Shown: positions 8,063 to 27,181 of the stretch, one piece after another | Numbering within the stretch: position 1 is the first letter of the stretch | Layout: every line of letters starts with the position of its first letter | Made by a program: the position numbers and the translations under genes | Notes under the pieces: model-generated | Seen by the model: the letters and a program-made list of their open reading frames with translations, nothing else | Databases searched by the model: none | What the model was told of the DNA's origin: nothing | Virus record (IMG/VR): IMGVR_UViG_3300045988_147139 | Length of the DNA stretch: 32,938 bases | Origin: a virus | Strand: one strand, 5' to 3'

Positions 8063-9718
8063 TTATTCGCAATATTTTGCGTAATTATATTTCTTTGAAG
8101 CCAAGATGTGGGCTTCATTTTGAGAATACCCTTTTTCCATATAGCGGAGTTCGGCATATTCGTGTTTCAGTAAAACGATATCCTGTTCCTTGAAATCGCC
8201 GTTTATAAGCCGCTGCCAAGACTGAGCCATATCATAAGAGGGGTCAAATCGCTTATGCCCTGTCAAGAGGTCGTGTTCGGTGATAAAAACGTGATTTTTT
8301 ATTTTGTCAATTTTATCACGGCTTATTCCTGTTGCCGCAGATATCTTCTGCGTATCTGTTGTCATATGGCGAACAGATTCATAATATTGAACAGCGTGCT
8401 TTTCGGCTTCCTTGCTGTAAGGGTTTAATGCTCCGCTTATTACACCTGTATTCATTATACCACTTCTGCTGCCATTGTCAAGCCCTGATTTCGCCTTCCT
8501 CTCCGCCCAAACCGTCTTGCTCGACTTGCTCCGATCATACCCGTAAACCTGAGTGCGGTCATTGTGCTGTTTAAGCCCCGTCTCCTTGCAGTAAGCCCTG
8601 TATTTCTCCCTCTGATTGCGAAGCCGTAAAGAAGCTTTCTGCAAGCCCTCAGTGTCGCCTGTTTCCTGTAACATCATACATTCACGCTTGGCGGCTCTGA
8701 TGCCCCGCTCCATAGCTCTCTGCTGCTGAAACTGCATATACCGCCTGTCATTTTCCTCTTTGGGATAGGGGAAATATCGCTGAAAATTGATGCCCGGAAC
8801 AAACGGATATTGAACGTGCCCGCAGTTGATACCGAGTATTCCGTCAGGCTGTCCGTAACTCGTCTGAGAAAAAGGCGTAAAATGTATTTTATTTCCTGCG
8901 CCGTCTGTGGTTACTCCGCTTGTGCCGTCACGGGAATAAATTTTTCCTTGGTCAATGGCACATTTGGGACGTGCGCCCAGATGTGAGCTTAGTTCGATAA
9001 GGTTTATCCCGTACTCATCACAACGTGCATTCTGCGCAGCCCTCGCCGTGTTTCCCAGCGTTGACCGCATATCCATCATAACGTAAGCCTCGGGAGACCA
9101 TTCACGCCCACGCTTGTCAACGAAAGCGGGAATGCCCTTTTGAGCAAGCTCACGTATGGTTTTCCTTGTTGCTTCCTGCAAGGACATCTGCCCCGATACA
9201 GCCTTTGCCGCACCCTTGCCCATAATGTCAAGAGCGCCCTGCCTGCCCTCGGAAGTGTCACGGTAAATGGCATTGACCGCATTTACATACGCCGAACCTG
9301 CCTTGTACCCCATGACCGTGTTCACAAGATTAAGGTCACTCGCCGCCTGCCGCTGAAACGCCTTGGCCGCATTCATGGCTGAGGTTTCCGCAGGAATGTC
9401 CGAGAAATATTCCGACAGCCCCGCAGCATTCGCCGCCTGCACCGCATTGTCAAGATATCCTATCTCAGTCTCAGCCGCCGTCAGAACAGCGTCCATAGCC
9501 TGACCGCCCTCGACCTCGGAATATCCCGCAATGATAGCCGCCGCCCGCTTGTCGAAACGTCCTGCCCTCGCCAGCTGCCTTATCCGCCATTTTGACGTGT
9601 CGGAAATATCTCCGTCCCGTGAAAGCTGCGCCGCAATTTCCCGCAGGATATCATCTTCCATGTCCAACAGTACCCGCACCAGAGGCGCCGAGAGCTCGTC
9701 ATACTGTTCCCTTGTCAT
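8063..9718 (-). CDS. Minor head / head-morphogenesis protein (SPP1 gp7 / MuF class) with ~130-aa C-terminal extension
   Basis: 551 aa. Its start overlaps the portal stop. The core region (...MDMRSTLGNTARAAQNARCDEYGINLIELSSHLGARPKCAIDQGKIYS...) is typical of minor capsid proteins that follow portals. The extra C-terminal module ends ...LLKHEYAELRYMEKGYSQNEAHILASKKYNYAKYCE. Confidence 0.7.
   Translation of the reverse strand: MTREQYDELSAPLVRVLLDMEDDILREIAAQLSRDGDISDTSKWRIRQLARAGRFDKRAAAIIAGYSEVEGGQAMDAVLTAAETEIGYLDNAVQAANAAGLSEYFSDIPAETSAMNAAKAFQRQAASDLNLVNTVMGYKAGSAYVNAVNAIYRDTSEGRQGALDIMGKGAAKAVSGQMSLQEATRKTIRELAQKGIPAFVDKRGREWSPEAYVMMDMRSTLGNTARAAQNARCDEYGINLIELSSHLGARPKCAIDQGKIYSRDGTSGVTTDGAGNKIHFTPFSQTSYGQPDGILGINCGHVQYPFVPGINFQRYFPYPKEENDRRYMQFQQQRAMERGIRAAKRECMMLQETGDTEGLQKASLRLRNQREKYRAYCKETGLKQHNDRTQVYGYDRSKSSKTVWAERKAKSGLDNGSRSGIMNTGVISGALNPYSKEAEKHAVQYYESVRHMTTDTQKISAATGISRDKIDKIKNHVFITEHDLLTGHKRFDPSYDMAQSWQRLINGDFKEQDIVLLKHEYAELRYMEKGYSQNEAHILASKKYNYAKYCE
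8454..8481 (-). promoter_or_regulatory. Strong internal promoter inside the minor head gene
   Basis: On the - strand: TTGACA (8481-8476), 16-nt spacer ending TGG (extended -10), TATAAT (8459-8454). Confidence 0.7.
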
Positions 9719-14160: not shown

Positions 14161-14185
14161 GGGTCACCACCTGCCGAAAAATAGG

Positions 14186-14224
14186 ATAAAAAAATCCGCT
14201 TACAGCCTTTAACCGTAAGCGGAT
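14186..14224 (-). terminator. Strong intrinsic terminator in the leader of the late operon
   Basis: A perfect 10-bp stem ATCCGCTTAC/GTAAGCGGAT with an 11-nt loop is followed by U7 on the - strand. It lies 25 nt upstream of the terS start. Confidence 0.75.
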
Positions 14225-14243
14225 ATAAAAATTCACTATATCC

Positions 14244-14272
14244 ATTTTAGCACAAACATAGTGACATGTCAA
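14244..14272 (-). promoter_or_regulatory. Late-operon promoter (PR'-like)
   Basis: On the - strand: TTGACA (14272-14267), 17-nt spacer ending TGC, TAAAAT (14249-14244). It overlaps the stop codon of the 139-aa regulator gene. The dyad GGATATA-N9-TATATCC (14243-14221) spans the predicted start site. Confidence 0.65.
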
Positions 14273-19308: not shown

Positions 19309-20083
19309 TTTTAAACTCCTCCGAGGTCAGGACCTTGTCAAGCTGTTTTGTGAATTTACAGTAATCACAGTGTCCGCATCTGGTCGGTTCTTCCTTTCCA
19401 GACTTTATTGCCGCATATCTTCCGATATTTGCCTTGACGATCTCCATAGCCGCATCAAGCTCAGCCTGATCCAGACTTATGACCTGTAAGTCGGTCTCCT
19501 TTTCCTTTGTAGCTGCAGCAAGGACAAAGGGGAGAGTTTCCCCTGTGTTCTGCCTTACTATCTCCTGATATACAGCGCCCTGAATGTCATAGCCCCAGGC
19601 TTCATAAAAGCTGAGCCTGCCTCTGCCGTTTACAAATATGGGGGAAAAGTCCTTTATGACCTTGAGGTCAACTATGGTCTTGTGCTCCCGATAGCTGTCA
19701 ATTTTTATCTTGACAGGCACGCCTTCAATCTCGCCCACCATAATTTTCTGCTTTTCTCCGTCCATAGCCTTCATGAAAAAGCTGTCTCGTTCGATTCGGT
19801 TGATTATGTAATCCGCCTGATTATATTCAGCTTTCAACGCACCGTCACGCTTGAATATTTCGGGGTTCTTTGCCTTGAAAATATCAAGCGTGCCCTCGAA
19901 ATGCGCATCGACATACGAGCCTACAAGAAGTGCGGTAGTCTTTTCGGGAGCATATTCACCGTGCAGCTCCGCAAGGGCTGCCGCCTCACATTTTTCAAAG
20001 CTTTTGAACTGAGACACGCCCATATATTTCAGATTGTTCTCCGGCGAAAAATAGTCGGTCTGAGTTATGCTGTGAGGTATCAT
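19292..20083 (-). CDS. PD-(D/E)XK exonuclease, Cas4/RecB-like (263 aa)
   Basis: ATG 20083 shares an ATGA overlap with the ATPase stop. It has a D...DLK nuclease motif (IVDLKVIKD) and a C-terminal Cys cluster CGHCDYC. It is the expected partner of RecT. Confidence 0.7.
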   Translation of the reverse strand: MIPHSITQTDYFSPENNLKYMGVSQFKSFEKCEAAALAELHGEYAPEKTTALLVGSYVDAHFEGTLDIFKAKNPEIFKRDGALKAEYNQADYIINRIERDSFFMKAMDGEKQKIMVGEIEGVPVKIKIDSYREHKTIVDLKVIKDFSPIFVNGRGRLSFYEAWGYDIQGAVYQEIVRQNTGETLPFVLAAATKEKETDLQVISLDQAELDAAMEIVKANIGRYAAIKSGKEEPTRCGHCDYCKFTKQLDKVLTSEEFKSDYTD

Positions 20084-21510
20084 AAATATGTTACCTCCAT
20101 TTCCGAACTGTCGGTCGTTCTTGTGGCGATAAACTGCACACCCTTTTCCCTGCACTTGTTGTACAGCTTTTCACGGTTTTCCGCACTGAGCTTTTCAGCG
20201 CCGTCGATGAGAATTATCTGTAAATTGTTGGGCTTGCTCAGAGCAACGTCAACGCAAAGCTCAAGCTGTTCACCCTCTGAGAGGTTGGAAACGGGGAGAC
20301 CGTGTATAAGGGGAATGCCGTTCTCCACCGTGAAGCCCTCAATGGGGATAGAAGCGGTTTCGAGTATCTTTCCGGGAAGACTGCGGGCAAGCTCTATCTT
20401 TGCTGTAAGCTTGTCCGAAGCGGCGGTAAGCTCCTTGACCTCTTCCTGCATATTCCTCATACGGTTGTACTCGTTGATATATTTTTTCATCTGCTCGGCG
20501 TGCGCCGCCTGCTCTTCCAGAGGAGCCGTTTCAACGGGAATTTTGTCCGCATATTCGTCAGCAACCTTGATATCGGAATCAAGCCTTGCCACATTTTCGT
20601 TATAACGGCTTTCCGCAATTGCTATCTTATCCGCAAGTATCCCGTCAAGGGAAGCAAGCTTGTTCTCATTGGCTGCGATCTCCGCTTTCATGCGTTCGAT
20701 AGATTTCAAAATAGCTTCACGCTGGTTTGATATCGCCATCTTTTCGGCAGCTACAGCGGATTCCTTTTCGCCCTGAAAGCCCCTTATCTTGTTGGCATAA
20801 CTGTCCTTGAACGCCTTTGCACGCTGAATACGGCTGTTGTGTTCCCTGGCGATGTTTATCTTCTTATACGCTTCCGCAAGGTCGAAATTCTCCCATTCCT
20901 CCGCATTGAAATGCTCGGGTATATCTTTGGCGATATCCTCGATGAACGCCTTCTGATTGCGGATATCACGGTTGATGTCCTGCCTGCGCTTAAAATAGTC
21001 CCCATTTTCGGACTGGATATCCGAAAGTACCTGCAGTATGTTCTGGCTGTAATCAATGCCCTGCGGTATCTCACCGAACTGCTGATTTATCCAGTTAAGG
21101 TCCCAGGGAAATTCGATGAGGTCAAGAATGGCCCTGTTCTGCTCCTTTTTGGTCATCTGGGTAAAAGCTACAGGGTCAAGCTGCAAGGGCGTAAAGAGCT
21201 GCTTAAGAAAGTTTTCGGGAGAAGATACTTCCTTGCCGCAGTCCTTTACGGATTTATAATCAGCCTGCTCGGTGCGCTTCTTACGATTGATGTAAATACC
21301 TGTGTCAGTCTCAACAATGATCTCGCCCTCCTTTTCGCCCTTGTGGATAACATAATCACGGGAGCTTCCATTGGTAAGAGCATATCTGATAGAATCTATT
21401 ACCGATGTCTTACCTGTACCGTTTGTACCTGTGATCTCGACAGATCTGCCGTCAAGCTCGGTCTCGGTGATGCCGAAAAGGTTCTTTATTTTTATCTTGG
21501 TAGCCTTCAT
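20080..21510 (-). CDS. SMC/RecN/SbcC-like AAA ATPase with coiled-coil
   Basis: It has Walker A GTNGTGKTS, a long coiled-coil middle region and Walker B LQIILIDGAEKL. Confidence 0.75.
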   Translation of the reverse strand: MKATKIKIKNLFGITETELDGRSVEITGTNGTGKTSVIDSIRYALTNGSSRDYVIHKGEKEGEIIVETDTGIYINRKKRTEQADYKSVKDCGKEVSSPENFLKQLFTPLQLDPVAFTQMTKKEQNRAILDLIEFPWDLNWINQQFGEIPQGIDYSQNILQVLSDIQSENGDYFKRRQDINRDIRNQKAFIEDIAKDIPEHFNAEEWENFDLAEAYKKINIAREHNSRIQRAKAFKDSYANKIRGFQGEKESAVAAEKMAISNQREAILKSIERMKAEIAANENKLASLDGILADKIAIAESRYNENVARLDSDIKVADEYADKIPVETAPLEEQAAHAEQMKKYINEYNRMRNMQEEVKELTAASDKLTAKIELARSLPGKILETASIPIEGFTVENGIPLIHGLPVSNLSEGEQLELCVDVALSKPNNLQIILIDGAEKLSAENREKLYNKCREKGVQFIATRTTDSSEMEVTYL

Positions 21511-21525
21511 TTTTCATATCCTCCG

Positions 21526-22140
21526 TTACAGTTCAATTCTTTCAACGGGCTGAATGTCCTCAGCCTCGCCCTCAACGTGTACGCCCATAAGGACTTCGGG
21601 GCAATAGACCCTCGCAAAGAATGACGATGCCCTGTATGCAAGCATAAGCTCGGGCATATTCGTCCATTTTGGATTTTTACCGAGCCACCCCTCATCCCTC
21701 GCCATTTTCAGCGTGACCTCGGGACCTTCCACTCTGTCACCCGTGTCAGCCCATACAGCCGACAGATAACAGCCTCGGTCATCGGTGCCCTTTGTGCCGA
21801 TATATACAGGTCGGACGCTGCCCGGCTTGAATTTGCCGCAGCCTTCAATGAGAGCCTTGCAAGCCTGCCCGCTCCATGAGGGCTTTCCTTTGACCACATA
21901 AAGGTTTTGCATGACCATCATTGGAGATACACCCATTCTGTCAGCCATATCTACAGCGATGGCGCAGTCGGCAGGCTTGTTTTTGTAGTTATCGGGTATT
22001 ATATCCGCTGTAGAGATTACCTTTGCGAGCTTATATGCTCTTGAAAAATCAGCAACTATATTTGTGGAAGGCTGCTGCACAATTTCCGATATTGCGGCGC
22101 TGCTCTGAGCAGGAGCCTGTATTATGTCGTTTGTTTCCAT
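21526..22140 (-). CDS. recT: RecT-family single-strand annealing protein
   Basis: MQNLYVVKGKPSWSGQACKALIE...NMPELMLAYRASSFFARVYCPEVLMG is typical RecT core sequence. Confidence 0.8.
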   Translation of the reverse strand: METNDIIQAPAQSSAAISEIVQQPSTNIVADFSRAYKLAKVISTADIIPDNYKNKPADCAIAVDMADRMGVSPMMVMQNLYVVKGKPSWSGQACKALIEGCGKFKPGSVRPVYIGTKGTDDRGCYLSAVWADTGDRVEGPEVTLKMARDEGWLGKNPKWTNMPELMLAYRASSFFARVYCPEVLMGVHVEGEAEDIQPVERIEL

Positions 22141-22142
22141 TT

Positions 22143-23213
22143 TTATTCCTCCTCAAAAAGTGACATTTGTTCGTTGGTTTGGGGGATATCCTGCCATTTA
22201 ACACCTATGTAGTCAAGGACACGCCCCCAGCCATATTTTTCACCATCGCTGTCCGTGCAGCATTCATACATCCAGTAATGCCATTCTTTGGGGTTGTCCT
22301 CTCGGAGACGGTCAAAACGGTGTGGACGCTGCTCAATGTGGATACCGAAGCCGCACATCGAACAGCCTGTCCTTTGCGCCCTCGTGGTGTACAGTGTGCC
22401 GTCATCTTTGCACTTTATCTCGCCGTATGCTCGGGGAATAGGGACGTTAAGGTCAAGAGCCAGCTGTAAAAGGTCTTGACGGGAAAATATTGCAAATGGG
22501 CAGGAACGAACAGTATTCTTGCCGTAATAATTACAGCCGTTTTTCATCAGTCCCATTTCCCTCTGTCCGCCCTCGGAAGCCATAAGCCCCAAATAAGGGT
22601 AACTGTTGTGCTCTTTCGCCCAATCGTCTGCGGGCTTTTCTTTCATATAATAACAGCATCTTGATGATACTTTAAATTCGGGCGGCTTTGTGAAAGCCAG
22701 GTCAGGACGGTGCTCTCGGTAATTGTACCCGAAAAGCTTTATCCATTTTTCAGGCAATTTTATTTTATTGCTGTGCTGAAAATGTCCCTGCTCGCCCATA
22801 TCTCCCGTCATTATGGCGTGGATAAACGTCTGCTTTTCGCTGTCGGGTGTGAGAAGATAGTTTATCTTGTTAGCTTTTGCCTTTGAAATAACCGGAAATC
22901 CTAAGTCCTGAAGGACTTTCGATTTGGACATATATGGCTTTATCGGAATTACGCCTAATTGTTTATGTATTTCCTGATTGCCCCTATCTTCAAGGATAGA
23001 TACAGATATTGCAGGAACATCAATGCCGATAGATCTGAGAAAACACAACAGCGTTATGCTGTCAAGTCCGCCAACTGAAACATGGCAGTTGGCATTGTAA
23101 TCTCCGACTGGTGAAGTAATAGTGTTATAGAAATCCTTTGCCATTTTAGCGGCATGGGAAATCTTGCTTTCGTAAGGTAGTTGCTGATATTGTTGGAATG
23201 TCTTGATATCCAC
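22143..23213 (-). CDS. PAPS reductase / DndC-like PP-loop protein (356 aa)
   Basis: GTG 23213 lies 9 nt after AGGAGG. It has a PP-loop-like motif HVSVGGLDS and C-terminal Cys motifs (SRCCYYMKEKP, CSMCGFG). Confidence 0.7.
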   Translation of the reverse strand: MDIKTFQQYQQLPYESKISHAAKMAKDFYNTITSPVGDYNANCHVSVGGLDSITLLCFLRSIGIDVPAISVSILEDRGNQEIHKQLGVIPIKPYMSKSKVLQDLGFPVISKAKANKINYLLTPDSEKQTFIHAIMTGDMGEQGHFQHSNKIKLPEKWIKLFGYNYREHRPDLAFTKPPEFKVSSRCCYYMKEKPADDWAKEHNSYPYLGLMASEGGQREMGLMKNGCNYYGKNTVRSCPFAIFSRQDLLQLALDLNVPIPRAYGEIKCKDDGTLYTTRAQRTGCSMCGFGIHIEQRPHRFDRLREDNPKEWHYWMYECCTDSDGEKYGWGRVLDYIGVKWQDIPQTNEQMSLFEEE

Positions 23214-23242
23214 TTGACAAATCCTCCTAAATGCCTTATAAT
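23214..23242 (+). promoter_or_regulatory. Exact consensus sigma-70 promoter (antisense to the early operon)
   Basis: TTGACA (23214-23219), 17 nt, TATAAT (23237-23242). It overlaps the RBS region of the PAPS-reductase-like gene on the other strand. Confidence 0.75.
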
Positions 23243-23248
23243 AAGGCT

Positions 23249-23300
23249 GTCTTATTTATCTTTTTGCCGTGTACGGTTGCCGCCGTCACGGCTTTTCTTT
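23249..23300 (+). ncRNA. Candidate ~50-nt antisense RNA (promoter plus immediate terminator)
   Basis: The predicted start is ~23249. The hairpin GCCGTGTACGG-ttgccg-CCGTCACGGC (23266-23292; 10 bp, one bulge) is followed by TTTTCTTT. No ORF is present. Confidence 0.5.
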
Positions 23301-23451
23301 ACCCCTGCACAGGGCATTCGGAGAGCGACAGAATACTTGCCGCACCAACAAACTGCTGAGCGCATTCATTCGCCATCTCAAAGCTGTGTGCCTGAATGCG
23401 GCAGCTGTACTTCCTGCCCTCATAGGCGTATCTAAGGATATACCATTTCAT
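23299..23451 (-). CDS. Hypothetical 50-aa protein (below the ORF-track cutoff)
   Basis: ATG 23451 lies 2 nt after the upstream stop, with GGAGGTG just upstream. The translation is MKWYILRYAYEGRKYSCRIQAHSFEMANECAQQFVGAASILSLSECPVQG. Confidence 0.45.
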   Translation of the reverse strand: MKWYILRYAYEGRKYSCRIQAHSFEMANECAQQFVGAASILSLSECPVQG

Positions 23452-23453
23452 TT

Positions 23454-23636
23454 TTACACCTCCTTGCAAACATCTGTGATAACCGCCTCGACCAGATCGT
23501 CAAGACTGTTTTCAGCGAAAATCCTGTCCTTTGCCTTAGCTTCGGCAGCTTCTCTCGACCCAGCCGATACGCTGTACACATCGTTGAATGCGCCGCCCTT
23601 GAACCTGAGGTGGACATATACGTTGTATGTGCTCAT
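23454..23636 (-). CDS. Hypothetical 60-aa protein
   Basis: It shares a TAATG overlap with the upstream gene. The translation begins MSTYNVYVHLRFKGGAFNDVYSVSAGSREAAEAKAKDRIF... Confidence 0.5.
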   Translation of the reverse strand: MSTYNVYVHLRFKGGAFNDVYSVSAGSREAAEAKAKDRIFAENSLDDLVEAVITDVCKEV

Positions 23637-23800
23637 TACTTTACACCTGCCTTTTCCTTAGCCGCTTCAAGCAGCTTCTTGTCGATGATACGCTTGAGGC
23701 ATTTTGCCATAATCTCAGGGCTTGGCTCGTTCACGAGTATGATCCTGCGTCCGCTTTCGGACATCATTTCTCTGATGATGGGCTTTGTGGTTTCATTCAT
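23636..23800 (-). CDS. Hypothetical 54-aa protein (below the ORF-track cutoff)
   Basis: ATG 23800 lies behind AAGGAG. The translation is MNETTKPIIREMMSESGRRIILVNEPSPEIMAKCLKRIIDKKLLEAAKEKAGVK. Confidence 0.5.
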   Translation of the reverse strand: MNETTKPIIREMMSESGRRIILVNEPSPEIMAKCLKRIIDKKLLEAAKEKAGVK

Positions 23801-23835
23801 ATTTATTTCTCCTTCTTATAATATTTAGACGTGTT

Positions 23836-23864
23836 AATATTTTATAAATTGTGCAGGTTGACAA
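23836..23864 (-). promoter_or_regulatory. Weak candidate promoter for the 23800 gene block
   Basis: On the - strand: TTGTCA (23864-23859), 17 nt, AATATT (23841-23836). It lies back-to-back with the + strand promoter at 23909. Confidence 0.25.
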
Positions 23865-23908
23865 ACAACTCCCAAAGTTTTTCGTAAATACCATATATAG
23901 CTATTTTA

Positions 23909-23937
23909 TTGACAATAATTACTATATGTAGTATAAT
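23909..23937 (+). promoter_or_regulatory. Exact consensus sigma-70 promoter for the 48-aa ORF
   Basis: TTGACA (23909-23914), 17 nt, TATAAT (23932-23937). Confidence 0.8.
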
Positions 23938-23971
23938 TAGGCTATAAACTAATATGAAGGGAGGAATGTTC

Positions 23972-24118
23972 ATGTCAAACACTAAGCAGACAAGTGCGTC
24001 TGTCGCTTCAAAAGCATCGACTATTCTTAGAGATGGTCGATACAGCAAGACTTCTAAGTCAGTTGCCGGAAGCGCTCTTTCTCAGACCAAGACATCTTCT
24101 AAGAGCAGCAAGAAGTAA
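23972..24118 (+). CDS. 48-aa Ser/Lys/Thr-rich protein (below the ORF-track cutoff)
   Basis: ATG 23972 lies 7 nt after GGGAGG. The translation is MSNTKQTSASVASKASTILRDGRYSKTSKSVAGSALSQTKTSSKSSKK. It has its own promoter and terminator. Confidence 0.6.
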   Translation: MSNTKQTSASVASKASTILRDGRYSKTSKSVAGSALSQTKTSSKSSKK

Positions 24119-24130
24119 GCTTGGCAAAAT

Positions 24131-24385
24131 TTAGTTTTCTTTGGCGGAGTGCGAATGTACTTCGCCGCTTTTTTTGAACAGTACCTGTACCGGAACATCT
24201 GAAAAGTATTTTTCATGTATTGCAAGAGCTTCATCAAGTGTGAAGCCTGAACGCCCCGTCAGTTTTTTGCTCAGGTAGTCAGCGCTTATCCCTGCTGCTT
24301 TCGCTATGTCTTTCTTCTTTATTTGCCTGCAGGCAATTTCTACTTCCAGTGCCGGATAAGCGGGTTTAACGGTTCTGTATGGCAA
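24131..24385 (-). CDS. Cro/XRE-like HTH protein (84 aa)
   Basis: It uses a TTG start. IKKKDIAKAAGISADYLSKKLTGRSGFTLDEALAI is a typical small HTH. Confidence 0.65.
   Translation of the reverse strand: MPYRTVKPAYPALEVEIACRQIKKKDIAKAAGISADYLSKKLTGRSGFTLDEALAIHEKYFSDVPVQVLFKKSGEVHSHSAKEN
24143..24175 (+). terminator. Intrinsic terminator of the 48-aa ORF transcript
   Basis: GGCGGAGT-gcgaatgt-ACTTCGCC is followed by GCTTTTTTT. It is embedded in the 3' end of the convergent HTH gene. Confidence 0.65.
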
Positions 24386-24402
24386 CTTCTCCTCATCTCC
24401 TT

Positions 24403-24422
24403 CCTGTCCTGATTTCGGGACA
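24403..24422. promoter_or_regulatory. 20-bp palindrome between two early genes (operator or RNA hairpin)
   Basis: CTGTCCTGATTTCGGGACAG has 6-bp perfect outer arms. Confidence 0.35.
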
Positions 24423-24432
24423 GATAATAAGT

Positions 24433-24621
24433 TTACTGCTCAATGATCTCCATATGGTCATAAGCATATTTGACCATATCATAAACGGTCTGAGCCTTGG
24501 TGTTATTGGTGATCTGCATGACCTCCTCGACCATTTTTGCAGCTTCGGGGTAAGTCCTCAGCTGGGCAAACTCGATAGGCGCTTCCTTTGGCGCTCTTTT
24601 GACTTTGAATTTCTCTTCCAT
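24433..24621 (-). CDS. Hypothetical 62-aa protein
   Basis: ATG 24621 lies behind AAGGAG. The translation begins MEEKFKVKRAPKEAPIEFAQLRTYPEAAKMVEEVMQI... Confidence 0.5.
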   Translation of the reverse strand: MEEKFKVKRAPKEAPIEFAQLRTYPEAAKMVEEVMQITNNTKAQTVYDMVKYAYDHMEIIEQ

Positions 24622-24633
24622 GTTTTCAACTCC

Positions 24634-24662
24634 TTGACAACCCACCTCTTACGCTGTATAAT
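24634..24662 (+). promoter_or_regulatory. Exact consensus sigma-70 promoter for the 63-aa ORF
   Basis: TTGACA (24634-24639), 17 nt, TATAAT (24657-24662). Confidence 0.8.
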
Positions 24663-24694
24663 GATGACAATTTACAGTGAAGGGGGGGATATAA

Positions 24695-24886
24695 ATGAGT
24701 TTCTGTCCTTTTATGAGTAATGGTAAGGACATAAAAAATTGGTGTGGCTGTATAACCTCTTGTGAGCTTCGTATTAACAATAGTTGCGCATTGAAGATAT
24801 TGGCTCAAAAGGCGTTATTTGATGTCAAGCATCAAAAGTCACAGATTGAAGAGAGCAAGCAGAGCGTTGCAGATAGCAGCCGTTAA
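24695..24886 (+). CDS. 63-aa Cys-rich protein
   Basis: ATG 24695 lies 6 nt after GAAGGGGGGG. MSFCPFMSNGKDIKNWCGCITSCELRINNSCALKIL... contains five Cys in the first 31 residues. Confidence 0.55.
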   Translation: MSFCPFMSNGKDIKNWCGCITSCELRINNSCALKILAQKALFDVKHQKSQIEESKQSVADSSR

Positions 24887-25000
24887 TCTGTCAAGCCCCT
24901 CAGCGGTATGCTCCCTTTTCGCCTCCTCTGAGAGCATTTTTATATGTTCCCAGAGGAGATTTTTTGCTTCCGTGGCTGTAAAGTTAGATTTGTTCTCCAT
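24839..25000 (-). CDS. Hypothetical 53-aa protein
   Basis: ATG 25000 lies behind GGGAAGTGAG. Its 3' end overlaps the convergent 63-aa ORF by 48 nt, so one of the two may not be real. Confidence 0.4.
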   Translation of the reverse strand: MENKSNFTATEAKNLLWEHIKMLSEEAKREHTAEGLDRLTAAICNALLALFNL

Positions 25001-25052
25001 TTTCTCACTTCCCTTCATTTTTGTCTGTCCTAATTTTCGCCCAAATGCGGTG

Positions 25053-25271
25053 CTATACTGATATAGAAAGGATTTCGTTGATAGCTGAAACAACCTTACC
25101 GCTTGTTATATCCCCCACAAGAATTTTGTACAGGTTGGAACTGTCAACATAGATGCCGGGATATCGGCGTTTGATTTCAGATATTAGCCATTCCTGCCTT
25201 CGATTTTGCTCCATAAGAGCAAGCTTGACCTTTTTACCGTAATTGCATAATGGCTTTTTGTATTCTGACAA
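25053..25271 (-). CDS. Small XRE-like HTH protein (72 aa), first gene of the early transcript
   Basis: TTG 25271 lies 7 nt after GGAGG (an alternative ATG is at 25286). KVKLALMEQNRRQEWLISEIKRRYPGIYVDSSNLYKILVG resembles an HTH. Confidence 0.55.
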   Translation of the reverse strand: MSEYKKPLCNYGKKVKLALMEQNRRQEWLISEIKRRYPGIYVDSSNLYKILVGDITSGKVVSAINEILSISV

Positions 25272-25303
25272 ATTAACACCTCCCATATTGTAAAATATCA
25301 CGA

Positions 25304-25332
25304 TTGACAGTTACGGAAAAATGTAATATAAT
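25304..25332 (+). promoter_or_regulatory. Exact consensus sigma-70 promoter directed at the HTH-like ORF and integrase
   Basis: TTGACA (25304-25309), 17 nt, TATAAT (25327-25332). Confidence 0.8.
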
Positions 25333-25431
25333 ATAGTTGCAAGATATTATTTTTACGTTCTGCCGTAACTGTGATTTTATTATATTACGTTTAGGCGTAA
25401 ATGTCAATAGTAAAATTACGGATTGGCATAA
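25311..25431. promoter_or_regulatory. Four operator-like dyads TTACG-N6-CGTAA
   Basis: The four sites are 25311-25326 (TTACG-N6-TGTAA), 25353-25368 (perfect), 25385-25400 (perfect) and 25416-25431 (TTACG-N6-CATAA). The first fills the spacer of the + promoter and the third fills the spacer of the - promoter. Confidence 0.6.
25379..25407 (-). promoter_or_regulatory. Exact consensus sigma-70 promoter for the early (- strand) operon, face-to-face with 25304
   Basis: On the - strand: TTGACA (25407-25402), 17 nt, TATAAT (25384-25379). Confidence 0.8.
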
Positions 25432-25465
25432 CTTTGTCAGTGTGTATAAAAGCAGGTGCATATTT

Positions 25466-25645
25466 ATGTCTAAATTGTATGAAACTATCGAACAACTTTG
25501 CAAAAACAAAGGCGTTAATATAACGAAAATGTGTAAAGATGCTGGAACATCTCTCGGAGCGCAGGAGAATGTGGTACATTCACCATTCTTTCAATGTGAA
25601 TTATACCATATCCTCCTCCAAATGTCAAGGAGTGATAACAAATAT
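25466..25645 (+). CDS. XRE-like HTH N-terminal fragment ORF, open in frame into the integrase
   Basis: ATG 25466 lies 7 nt after AGGTG. MSKLYETIEQLCKNKGVNITKMCKDAGTSLG looks like helices 1-2 and the turn of an XRE HTH, after which the similarity is lost. There is no stop codon before the integrase ATG. Confidence 0.35.
25540..25640. other. Candidate attP region
   Basis: The dyads GAATGT-ggt-ACATTC (25567-25581) and AGAATG...CATTCT (25566-25589) and the repeated AATGTG (25568, 25593) lie where the HTH similarity ends, just upstream of int. Confidence 0.25.
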
Positions 25646-27181
25646 ATGAAAACCGCCGTAATATACGCCCGGTATTCGTCCGACAAGCAAACGGAGCAGT
25701 CCATCGAGGGACAGCTCTACGACTGCTACAACTACGCCAAGCAGCACGGCATAACAGTCGTGCGGGAATACATAGACCGAGCCATGACAGGTAAAAATGA
25801 CGACCGCCCCGCCTTCCAGCAGATGCTTCATGAAAGCGCCATGCACAAGTGGGATAGTGTTATTGTGTGGAAACTTGACCGCTTTGCACGCAACACCATA
25901 GACAGCGCCGTAAACCGCCAGATTTTAGCTAAAAACGGCGTGAAGCTGCTGTCCGTCATGGAGAGCTTCGGGGACGATGCCAGCGGTCAGATGATGACCC
26001 ATATCATTGAAGCAATAAACGAATACTACAGCGCCGATCTTCGGGAAAAGACTATCCGAGGAATGCGGCAGTCGGCAATGAAGGCTCAGACAACGGGACA
26101 TATCCCGCTGGGTTACAAGGTCGTTGACAAGAAGCTGGTCATTGATGATGAGACCCGAATTATACCCGAAACTGTGTTCCGAATGTACGCAGAGGGGGAG
26201 AGGCTCACTGACATAGCCGATCATCTGAACGCCCAGGGCTATCGCAACCGCCGAGGCAGACCGTTTACCACAAACAGTTTTTACAATATGCTGGCTAATG
26301 AAAAATACATAGGCATTTACAAATACGACGATATAGTGATCGAGGGAGGAATACCGCAGATGATACCCAATGAAGTTTTTGAGGCTGTAAGAGAAAAGCT
26401 GATAACCAACCGCAAGAGAGCCGCCAAGAACACCGCCAAAGCCGATTATTATTTGTCGGGCAAATTATACTGCGGTCACTGCGGAGAGCCTATGAGCGGG
26501 CTGTCAGGCACAGGACGCAACGGGGTCAAGCACTATTATTACCGCTGTAACGGCGTGCAGAAAAAGTCAGGCTGCCACAAGAAGCTGGAGAATAAATATC
26601 TGATAGAGGACGAGGTGTGCAGAGCAGCACGGTCAGCGTTTGAGCAGATGGACAAGGCGGAGACTGCCGAGACCATTTATCAGATGTATTTGCAGACGGT
26701 CAGAAATGAGTATGCGCCTGCCGAACTGGAAAAGGAGCTGACCGAATGCACTAAGCAGGCTGAGAACGTTGTGAACGCCATAGCTCAGACAGGCGGAAAT
26801 CAGCTTCTGTTCGATAAGGTAAGGGAGCTGGAAGAGCGCAAGGAGCAACTCGGCTCCGCCCTCCGATTGTCTCAGGCGATGACCGACAATGTCCCCTCTG
26901 TGGAGCAGATCACCGTGTTTATAGATGATATCCTTGCAACCGATATCAACACCACCGAGGGCAAGAAAGCTATCGCCGACATCATGATATCAAAGGTGTA
27001 TGTTTACGACGACAAGCTCACGGCCATTTTCAAAGATAAGGACGGCAAAAGCGTTGATATACCGCTATCAGACGTGTCAGATAGCTCCTCAGCGGATTGT
27101 GCTCCCTCTGCGCTGGGGAGCCAAAGCACACACAGGCGAACCGTTGGTAATAATCAATGGTTCGCTTTTGTTATCAGTTAA
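25646..27181 (+). CDS. int: Large serine recombinase (integrase), 511 aa
   Basis: It has an N-terminal resolvase catalytic domain (MKTAVIYARYSSDKQ), a recombinase domain, a zinc ribbon (CGHCGEPM...YYRCNG...GCH) and a C-terminal coiled-coil. Confidence 0.9.
   Translation: MKTAVIYARYSSDKQTEQSIEGQLYDCYNYAKQHGITVVREYIDRAMTGKNDDRPAFQQMLHESAMHKWDSVIVWKLDRFARNTIDSAVNRQILAKNGVKLLSVMESFGDDASGQMMTHIIEAINEYYSADLREKTIRGMRQSAMKAQTTGHIPLGYKVVDKKLVIDDETRIIPETVFRMYAEGERLTDIADHLNAQGYRNRRGRPFTTNSFYNMLANEKYIGIYKYDDIVIEGGIPQMIPNEVFEAVREKLITNRKRAAKNTAKADYYLSGKLYCGHCGEPMSGLSGTGRNGVKHYYYRCNGVQKKSGCHKKLENKYLIEDEVCRAARSAFEQMDKAETAETIYQMYLQTVRNEYAPAELEKELTECTKQAENVVNAIAQTGGNQLLFDKVRELEERKEQLGSALRLSQAMTDNVPSVEQITVFIDDILATDINTTEGKKAIADIMISKVYVYDDKLTAIFKDKDGKSVDIPLSDVSDSSSADCAPSALGSQSTHRRTVGNNQWFAFVIS

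Follow-up and report, generated by a model that had tools for sequence, protein, structure and literature searches.

The gap between two leftward early genes of a temperate phage is filled by an 87-nt cassette. On the strand opposite to these genes, the cassette carries a perfect promoter followed closely by a terminator hairpin, and conservation, covariation, and strand asymmetry support the view that this is a real transcription unit. An earlier note on the same DNA had proposed a self-contained promoter-terminator unit that makes an RNA of about 50 nt antisense to the intercistronic segment, a prediction that these three lines of evidence support. Judging from the sequence, we consider it somewhat probable that the cassette joins three functions: it would be a cis-antisense unit whose RNA of about 50 nt acts as a brake on the distal early genes, it supplies the Shine-Dalgarno (SD) sequence of the next gene, and it would provide homology for exchange.

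The window, meaning the whole stretch of 32,938 nt that was analyzed, comes from a temperate gut Clostridia phage. Among annotated sequences, Enterocloster phages and human faecal phage contigs are closest to it. A large serine recombinase is encoded on the + strand (about 25647-27181), the strand of the repressor and the integrase. The early operon runs leftward on the - strand, from small genes through a PAPS-reductase-like gene to RecT and an SbcC-like ATPase. The PAPS-reductase-like gene opens the recombination block, which contains RecT, the SbcC-like ATPase, and others. Calls for this gene match on independent assemblies, and the 50-aa gene upstream of it is called there as well. From the stop codon of the 50-aa gene to the GTG of the PAPS-reductase-like gene, the gap measures about 85 to 87 nt, and the cassette takes up all of it (Table 1).

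Table 1. The cassette, its neighboring genes, and the main module types (positions in the window)
Feature	Position	Strand	Remarks
SbcC-like ATPase	20080-21510	-	
RecT	21526-22140	-	
PAPS-reductase-like protein gene	22143..23213	-	356 aa; GTG start at 23213; phrog_424, E 3e-23
-35 hexamer TTGACA	23214..23219	+	12/12 promoter together with the -10; 17-nt spacer
SD of the PAPS-reductase-like gene, AGGAGG on the - strand (CCTCCT on +)	23223..23228	-	within the 17-nt promoter spacer
Perfect 15-bp palindrome GCCTTAT-A-ATAAGGC	23233..23247	.	GCCTTATAATAAGGC; centred on the -10
-10 hexamer TATAAT	23237..23242	+	
Predicted antisense RNA, ~50-53 nt	23249..23300	+	putative start G23249, read from sequence
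Terminator hairpin, 10-11 bp	23266..23292	+	bulged T at 23272; apical U.G pair closes a 4-nt loop
T-run of the intrinsic terminator	23293..23300	+	TTTTCTTT
Upstream early gene, 50 aa, function unassigned	23299..23451	-	ATG at 23451; AAGGAGG before the ATG
Module type V1			AATCCTCCTAAATGCCT
Module type V2			TTCTCCTTAAAATCTGC
Module type V3			ACCTCCTCTGAATATCC

An exact TTGACA-N17-TATAAT promoter had been claimed at 23214-23242, and we located it exactly there. The number of such sequences expected in shuffles of the window is 0.00, and six are observed. All six lie in 23214-25628, so the promoter at 23214-23242 is one of a cluster of perfect promoters around the lysis-lysogeny switch. It is predicted to be strong and probably constitutive, and none of the operator dyads of the main repressor (TTACG-N6-CGTAA) is found at this promoter. 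Read on the - strand, the -35 hexamer is the spacer that sets the SD of the PAPS-reductase-like gene apart from its GTG start, and the start codon at 23213 abuts it. The promoter was also said to overlap the SD region of this gene, and indeed CCTCCT lies inside the spacer at 23223-23228. The cassette evidently supplies both the SD and the start-codon context for the next early gene on the - strand.

The GC-rich hairpin and T-run that had been described about 24 nt after the promoter are present at 23266-23292 and beyond, with 10 to 11 pairs and a distance of 23 nt from the -10 to the stem. The layout of the hairpin is GCCGTG-T-ACGG(T)/loop/(G)CCGT-CACGGC, and because of the bulge a simple terminator scan misses it. 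Its folding energy is -18.1 kcal/mol (z -5.5), a value that none of 200 shuffles reached. At its end, the T-run overlaps the TAA stop of the 50-aa gene (23299-23301, - strand). From the putative start near 23249 to the terminator there is no ATG and no start preceded by an SD. Only mechanical ORFs overlap this stretch, and the claim that no ORF lies between promoter and terminator agrees with our finding of no credible one.

In the fold of the predicted RNA, 51 to 53 nt long, a 17-nt U-rich unstructured 5′ tail precedes the terminator hairpin and the U-tract. The RNA overlaps only the stop codon of the upstream gene and no further coding sequence, and it stops about 20 nt before the SD of the next gene, whose start codon is at 23213. 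When compared with the whole window by blastn-short and RNAduplex, its only strong partner is its own cis antisense site; the next-best duplexes in the window, the candidate trans targets, are about 3 sd away from the average over ~4,400 windows, as expected by chance. A search of Rfam gave no match at the gathering score, and the best permissive match (E 1.2) is far below threshold.

Read along the early mRNA, the cassette begins with the stop codon, an A-rich stretch, a large hairpin, and a second A-rich stretch. These are followed by a small hairpin formed by the palindrome, AUUU, AGGAGG, AUU-UGUCAA, and the start codon. The predicted RNA would pair with the mRNA from the stop codon through the second A-rich stretch, and the end of the predicted duplex coincides exactly with the beginning of the small hairpin. 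Between the pairing region and the SD we found no convincing latent terminator on the early mRNA; the palindrome hairpin is followed only by AUUUA.

We collected relatives of the cassette in two ways. Eighty viral loci were fetched via the PAPS-reductase-like protein, and viral, genome, and metagenome collections were searched for the hairpin pattern and nothing else. Since the hairpin anchor is silent on the promoter, it allows a non-circular test of promoter conservation. There were 31 distinct hairpin-bearing segments, two of which (L178 and L206) are unrelated hairpins without a T-run, leaving 29 modules. A T-run follows the hairpin in 29 of 29, and TTGACA-N17-TA(T/C)AAT, with 11 or 12 matches out of 12, stands at a fixed distance in 28. 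The remaining module, from a contig of low coverage, has 9 nt of its spacer duplicated. The 28 promoter-bearing modules comprise three main types (V1, V2, and V3) and minor variants. Their spacers and the flanks of their -10 elements are unrelated in sequence, so the hexamers and the spacing are kept while the sequence between them changes. The spacers of types V1, V2, V3, L078, and L013 contain a CCTCC-type SD complement. Past the -10, a G preceded by T is found at 7 nt in 11 of 12 module variants; T/G at such a distance is the usual context of a start site.

The hairpin itself covaries. In a sequence-based alignment of 15 variants, 95% of the cells are paired, versus 76% in shuffles, and the covariation score is 0.54 versus 0.20; none of 500 shuffles scored as high, and the values of all slid controls were far lower. 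The count was made on this 15-sequence alignment (A1); a gap-free alignment of 32-nt sister hairpins holds 7 distinct sequences. In one variant, L095, the inner stem ACGG/CCGT is replaced by CCTG/CAGG. Of 18 hairpin variants, 16 have the more stable fold on the promoter strand, where they use 1 to 4 G.U pairs; the mRNA strand would have an A.C mismatch at each of these places. The apical U.G pair is retained in 13 of 15 sequences.

A strand asymmetry is also seen in the 80 loci. A terminator follows within 110 nt for 42 of 100 near-consensus promoters on the antisense strand but for only 6 of 42 on the sense strand. Because the 80 loci are related, these figures describe the set and carry no test. 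A related locus usually has one antisense unit and at most two, and 40 of the 80 have no such unit.

The favored reading would work as follows. The + strand would form a complete sigma-A unit (promoter, start near G23249, intrinsic terminator) producing an RNA of about 50 nt that is fully complementary to the intercistronic part of the polycistronic early mRNA of the - strand. This RNA would set a brake or threshold on the distal early genes for recombination and DNA metabolism: RecT, nucleases, and the ATPase. During weak early transcription, as in a leaky prophage, the head-on promoter would produce the antisense RNA in excess. The RNA would pair with the scarce early transcripts and bring about double-strand-specific cleavage just upstream of the ribosome site. 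The 50-bp perfect duplex would be a substrate for RNase III, which can cleave such a duplex in Firmicutes. Head-on polymerase traffic would contribute transcriptional interference. Once the early promoter fires fully, polymerases traversing the cassette would knock out the antisense promoter and the brake would be off. The cassette would also be a homology patch for the exchange of gene blocks, because many otherwise unrelated phages carry it almost unchanged and show mosaic junctions there. Since the RNA ends about 20 nt short of the SD and has no coding overlap, we do not expect a simple translation block of the sar-on-ant type.

The nearest known systems by kind are sar of phage P22 and OOP of lambda. 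The sar RNA, from the immI region, is 68/69 nt long, has its own promoter and intrinsic terminator, and acts on the mRNA of the next gene (PMC12197685; PMC2629481). As with sar, a short RNA from the opposite strand of an intercistronic region in a phage operon is predicted here. The two differ in that sar lies over the ribosome-binding site of ant and prevents translation, whereas the cassette RNA would end before the SD. The cassette also has no sequence or Rfam similarity to sar, its host is Gram-positive, and it sits in the main early operon and not in an immunity moron, being common to unrelated gene contexts. OOP, 77 nt long and transcribed from pO, pairs with early mRNA, leading to its RNase III-dependent decay (PMC12197685). 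Like OOP and the paQ antisense transcript, the predicted RNA of the cassette would be a short and probably constitutive antisense product of a temperate phage's early region, and RNase III-dependent decay is the mechanism that we infer for it. There is no homology; at the 3′ end of cII, OOP overlaps coding sequence, whereas the cassette RNA would cover only a stop codon and non-coding sequence, and it would act on genes for recombination and DNA metabolism, not on a regulator of lysogeny. The resemblance to sar and OOP drawn in the earlier note is thus valid in kind; it does not extend to the position of the RNA, which ends about 20 nt before the SD, or to any sequence or Rfam relationship.

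Among plasmids of Firmicutes, RNAI of pT181 and RNAIII of pIP501 are short antisense RNAs with strong constitutive promoters and a terminator hairpin. They act upstream of the ribosome site of their gene by inducing a terminator in the nascent leader. The cassette differs from these countertranscripts in that its early mRNA has no convincing latent terminator before the SD, and we rejected countertranscript-driven attenuation for lack of such a terminator on the mRNA.

The cassette is portable. In L006, L007, L048, L107, L157, and L088, the module is 98 to 99% identical to that of the window, and both 300-nt flanks are at background identity (46 to 62%). Modules are found in 14 different left and 16 different right contexts. 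They always occupy the stop-to-start gap of two co-oriented genes, and the gene pair varies by phage. The genes downstream of the copies encode one of three divergent PAPS-reductase-like proteins, a 231-aa protein, a 147-aa protein, an SbcC-like ATPase, or an AbrB-like protein. In nearly all copies, the intergenic region consists of the cassette alone: the start of one - strand gene is 0 to 2 nt away from the -35, and the T-run ends at the stop of another. The mosaic junctions coincide with start and stop codons. Crossovers inside the SD/-35 part are seen in three loci. In L003, the module is located further upstream and only a degenerate -35/SD copy stands directly before the PAPS-reductase gene. 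In L038 and L041, only the -35/SD part stands directly before the gene, and another complete module lies 177 nt upstream. Pairing in cis needs no conservation between phages, so an identity of 98 to 99% points beyond pairing, to a recombination linker or some other partner. A linker role in gene conversion or recombination, with the RecT gene adjoining, explains this near-identity best. The window has one copy of the cassette, and a MITE-like mobile element was rejected: there are no terminal repeats and no target duplications, and each genome has one copy.

Elements of similar make-up, the PeSL cassettes, are known from T4-type phages. With about 90 to 100 bp, they fill the space between the stop codon of one gene and the start codon of the following one (Arbiol et al. 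2010, PMC2839356). Their parts are a consensus promoter of the sigma-70 type, a stem-loop, in many cases over the -10, a terminator-like hairpin, and an SD (PMC2839356). PeSLs mark the places of gene insertion, deletion, or replacement and mediate the shuffling of modules (PMC2839356); mini-circles that form when cassettes recombine are a further mark of them. Our cassette likewise runs from stop to start, carries a promoter, a stem-loop at the -10, a hairpin, and an SD, and is found at replacement junctions. However, the PeSL promoter drives the downstream gene, whereas the + strand promoter of the cassette opposes both of its - strand neighbors. PeSLs also occur in many copies per virulent myovirus, in hyperplastic regions, in contrast to one cassette per temperate siphovirus-type genome. 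Since the cassette is nearly unchanged between unrelated flanking genes, PeSLs are an equally close comparator to sar and OOP. They are the closest in architecture and evolutionary behavior, with the cassette as a reversed, single-copy version.

This comparison leads to the strongest rival explanation, which takes the cassette to be first of all a PeSL-like linker in reverse. The promoter and terminator would be active, the short RNA would have no specific regulatory target, and the terminator would merely shield the neighbors from the promoter. The shared homology would allow swaps of gene blocks, aided by the RecT-type recombinase encoded just downstream. The near-identical modules between diverged flanks in the six loci named above fit this explanation well, as do the 14 left and 16 right contexts with junctions exactly at start and stop codons and the crossovers within the SD/-35 part in L003 and L038/L041; PeSLs of the same make-up also mediate shuffling (PMC2839356). 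However, a linker does not account for the -35, the -10, their spacing, the start base, and the terminator all being kept over unrelated spacers by a promoter that serves no gene. Moreover, with one copy per phage, intragenomic shuffling of the PeSL type is unavailable. We regard the linker as the sole role of the cassette as unlikely; as a component, it is compatible with our best explanation. A more specific version of the reversed PeSL, a threshold brake on the delayed-early genes for recombination and replication that works by a titrating antisense RNA and head-on interference, is switched by a factor recognizing the palindrome, and is combined with a preferred RecT-dependent crossover site for mosaicism in one 87-bp element, strikes us as decidedly unlikely.

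The palindrome over the -10 raises the question of an operator. In the early transcript, the same letters can pair into a 6-bp hairpin that ends 4 nt before the SD. Its arms covary across module types, which have ATCCTAT-A-ATAGGAT, ATCTGC-N6-GCAGAT, or CTCTAT-N6-ATAGAG in its place. The palindrome could be bound as DNA by a dimeric protein of the phage or host that switches the head-on promoter or roadblocks early transcription, making the cassette a protein-controlled timer between immediate and delayed early genes. Four perfect repeats on the -10 with co-changing arms (GCCTTAT/ATAAGGC, ATCCTAT/ATAGGAT, ATCTGC/GCAGAT, and CTCTAT/ATAGAG) are in line with this, and they contain no G.U pairs except in the L205/L209 variant, as DNA symmetry predicts. 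The module also borders the small early genes and the DNA-metabolism block. On the other hand, the palindrome has no second occurrence elsewhere in the window, six module types have no such repeat at the -10, and the L205/L209 variant weakens the symmetry. The type of palindrome is independent of the neighboring small genes, and the operators of the main repressor (TTACG-N6-CGTAA) are different and absent at the cassette. An operator of this kind is improbable in our view. We also tried the 15-mer as an operator set; its 77 exact matches in the viral collection, mostly from unrelated environments, are about the chance number by a rough estimate, and the set was put aside. A bidirectional or - strand promoter in the cassette was rejected as well: the - strand sequence of the palindrome includes TATTAT, but no -35 there matches better than 2/6.

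A further possibility, offered in the earlier note as an alternative, is that the unit is an entry point for lysogenic transcription of the + strand, gated by a terminator that is passed only with a phage factor. Read-through would produce a long RNA antisense to the small early genes, toward the repressor and integrase side. The + strand does carry the repressor and the integrase, and a unit of the same geometry precedes the late genes (14272->14185, 88 nt from -35 to T-run end). Like the lambda PR′-tR′ gate controlled by Q, the cassette has a promoter and then a close terminator, but no operon that depends on read-through follows on the + strand. Downstream there are only antisense stretches and two units with their own perfect promoters (23909 and 24634), so no gene depends on read-through. 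The best -10-like pause match, judged by eye, is TATTTA (3/6), versus TATAGT (5/6) in the late unit, and the units at 23214 and 14272 share no inverted repeat and have only a 7-mer in common. With nothing downstream that needs read-through, the proposal of an antitermination-controlled entry point finds little support, and we consider it quite improbable.

Selection could instead have acted on the early mRNA of the - strand, with the two hairpins as processing or stability signals, comparable to the RNase III sites in the early RNAs of T7 or SP82, and with the promoter match on the + strand as a by-product. The 87 nt of the - strand have a stable fold too (-26.1 kcal/mol, z -4.75), the mRNA is A-rich here, and the palindrome hairpin 4 nt before the SD is where a 5′ stabilizer would sit. 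However, a by-product cannot account for exact hexamers at a 17-nt spacing over three spacer types, and the conserved T/G start context would be unexplained. The G.U pairs favor the other strand in 16 of 18 variants, and the apical U.G is conserved. Only on the + strand does the T-run stand 3′ of the hairpin; the mRNA has AAAAAG after its hairpin. The 10-bp stem is also short for RNase III. Together, hexamer conservation and strand bias argue against selection on mRNA hairpins only, an explanation that we judge very improbable. A type I toxin-antitoxin system was rejected, the 50-aa neighbor being not hydrophobic and the flanking genes varying between module copies.

To our knowledge, the short antisense RNAs described for phage control regions belong, with few exceptions, to a handful of enterobacterial phages (sar, OOP, paQ, and c4), and we know of nothing comparable from the abundant temperate phages of gut Clostridia. 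The copies found here make up a sequence family of at least 29 distinct members: the cassette is 87 nt long, comes with several types of promoter, and stands in dozens of gene contexts. It can be annotated at once in viromes, where it is now an unannotated gap. If the RNA is made, it would offer a simple handle on the silencing of recombination and nuclease genes in lysogens. The island of identity between unrelated genes is a testable case of linker-mediated modular exchange outside the T4-type phages. If the reversed-PeSL reading is true, regulation and gene shuffling would be coupled in a single 87-bp element of gut Clostridia phages.

The module is dispensable in some relatives. The equivalent gap of the cultured Enterocloster phage Saumur has no module, which adds to the 40 of 80 related loci without a unit, and in the phage collection we found no isolated phage with the cassette. 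In relatives with an intact 131-aa repressor, the module is identical. In the genome collection, copies of the cassette occur in Huintestinicola butyrica, where strain Sanger_06 has one of type V1 on NZ_JAOQKB010000019.1 (locus L176), and in an uncultured Ruminococcus genome; a third match, from a Lachnospiraceae genome, turned out to be an unrelated hairpin.

The antisense module at 23214-23300, in which a + strand promoter is followed by a terminator, has a counterpart elsewhere in the window. A second promoter-then-terminator unit precedes the packaging genes and shares its geometry, at 88 nt. The promoter of this unit is an 11/12 match with TGn, and its -10 element is flanked by an inverted repeat, TCACTAT...ATAGTGA. 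The initial transcribed region contains a -10-like TATAGT.

Consensus promoters and promoter-terminator units besides the antisense module
Feature	Location	Strand	Basis
Second promoter-then-terminator unit, preceding packaging genes	window 14185-14272	-	sequence
Perfect promoter adjoining integrase start	window 25600-25628	-	sequence
Two further perfect promoters, between genes of the early operon on the - strand, with their predicted ORFs	23909-24167 and 24634-24886	+	sequence
TTGACA-N16-TATAAT, within late-gene region	window 8454-8481	-	sequence
Sister antisense units	about 120-160 nt upstream of PAPS-reductase gene	- strand of loci	L014-L034 group

We also found a perfect promoter beside the start of the integrase, a large serine recombinase. 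In L089 (- strand), a relative whose lysogeny module is intact, a terminator lies ~80 nt past this promoter, which makes the pair, as predicted from sequence, another short promoter-RNA-terminator unit. A deletion scar interrupts this unit in the window. Other relatives (L005:427, L031:183, L032:184) carry a different, two-hairpin unit (TTGACATTTTCAGGGAGC...) in the corresponding position, where it abuts the integrase SD.

Upstream of the PAPS-reductase-like gene, the related loci of the L014-L034 group carry a sister family of antisense units. These have an extended -10 (TGTGCTATCAT) and two hairpins with an exposed CCUCC in between. The first hairpin shows covariation (GGTATC/GATACC versus GATAT/ATATC). 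Their terminator and that of the module in the window are homologous.

The two perfect promoters in the early operon are predicted to drive small ORFs, both of them gene-called in independent assemblies. One would drive a Ser/Lys-rich ORF of 48-54 aa that matches phrog_5079 (E 6e-21) and has a clean terminator at its end. The other would drive a Cys-rich ORF of 63 aa, overlapping an early gene at that gene's 3′ end. No terminator follows the promoter in the late-gene region.

Some copies of the module are altered. A metagenome contig with a coverage of 3.8 (L204) has a module of V3, one of the main types, with a 9-nt duplication (ATCCTATAT), which gives a promoter spacer of 26 nt. The duplication either reflects an error of assembly or marks a naturally occurring promoter-down variant. 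Two other loci, L038 and L041, have a truncated copy of the V1 type, with the -35 and SD part only, immediately before the PAPS-reductase gene; 177 nt farther upstream they have a complete module whose sequence differs. The arrangement resembles what a gene inserted by recombination within the cassette would leave behind.
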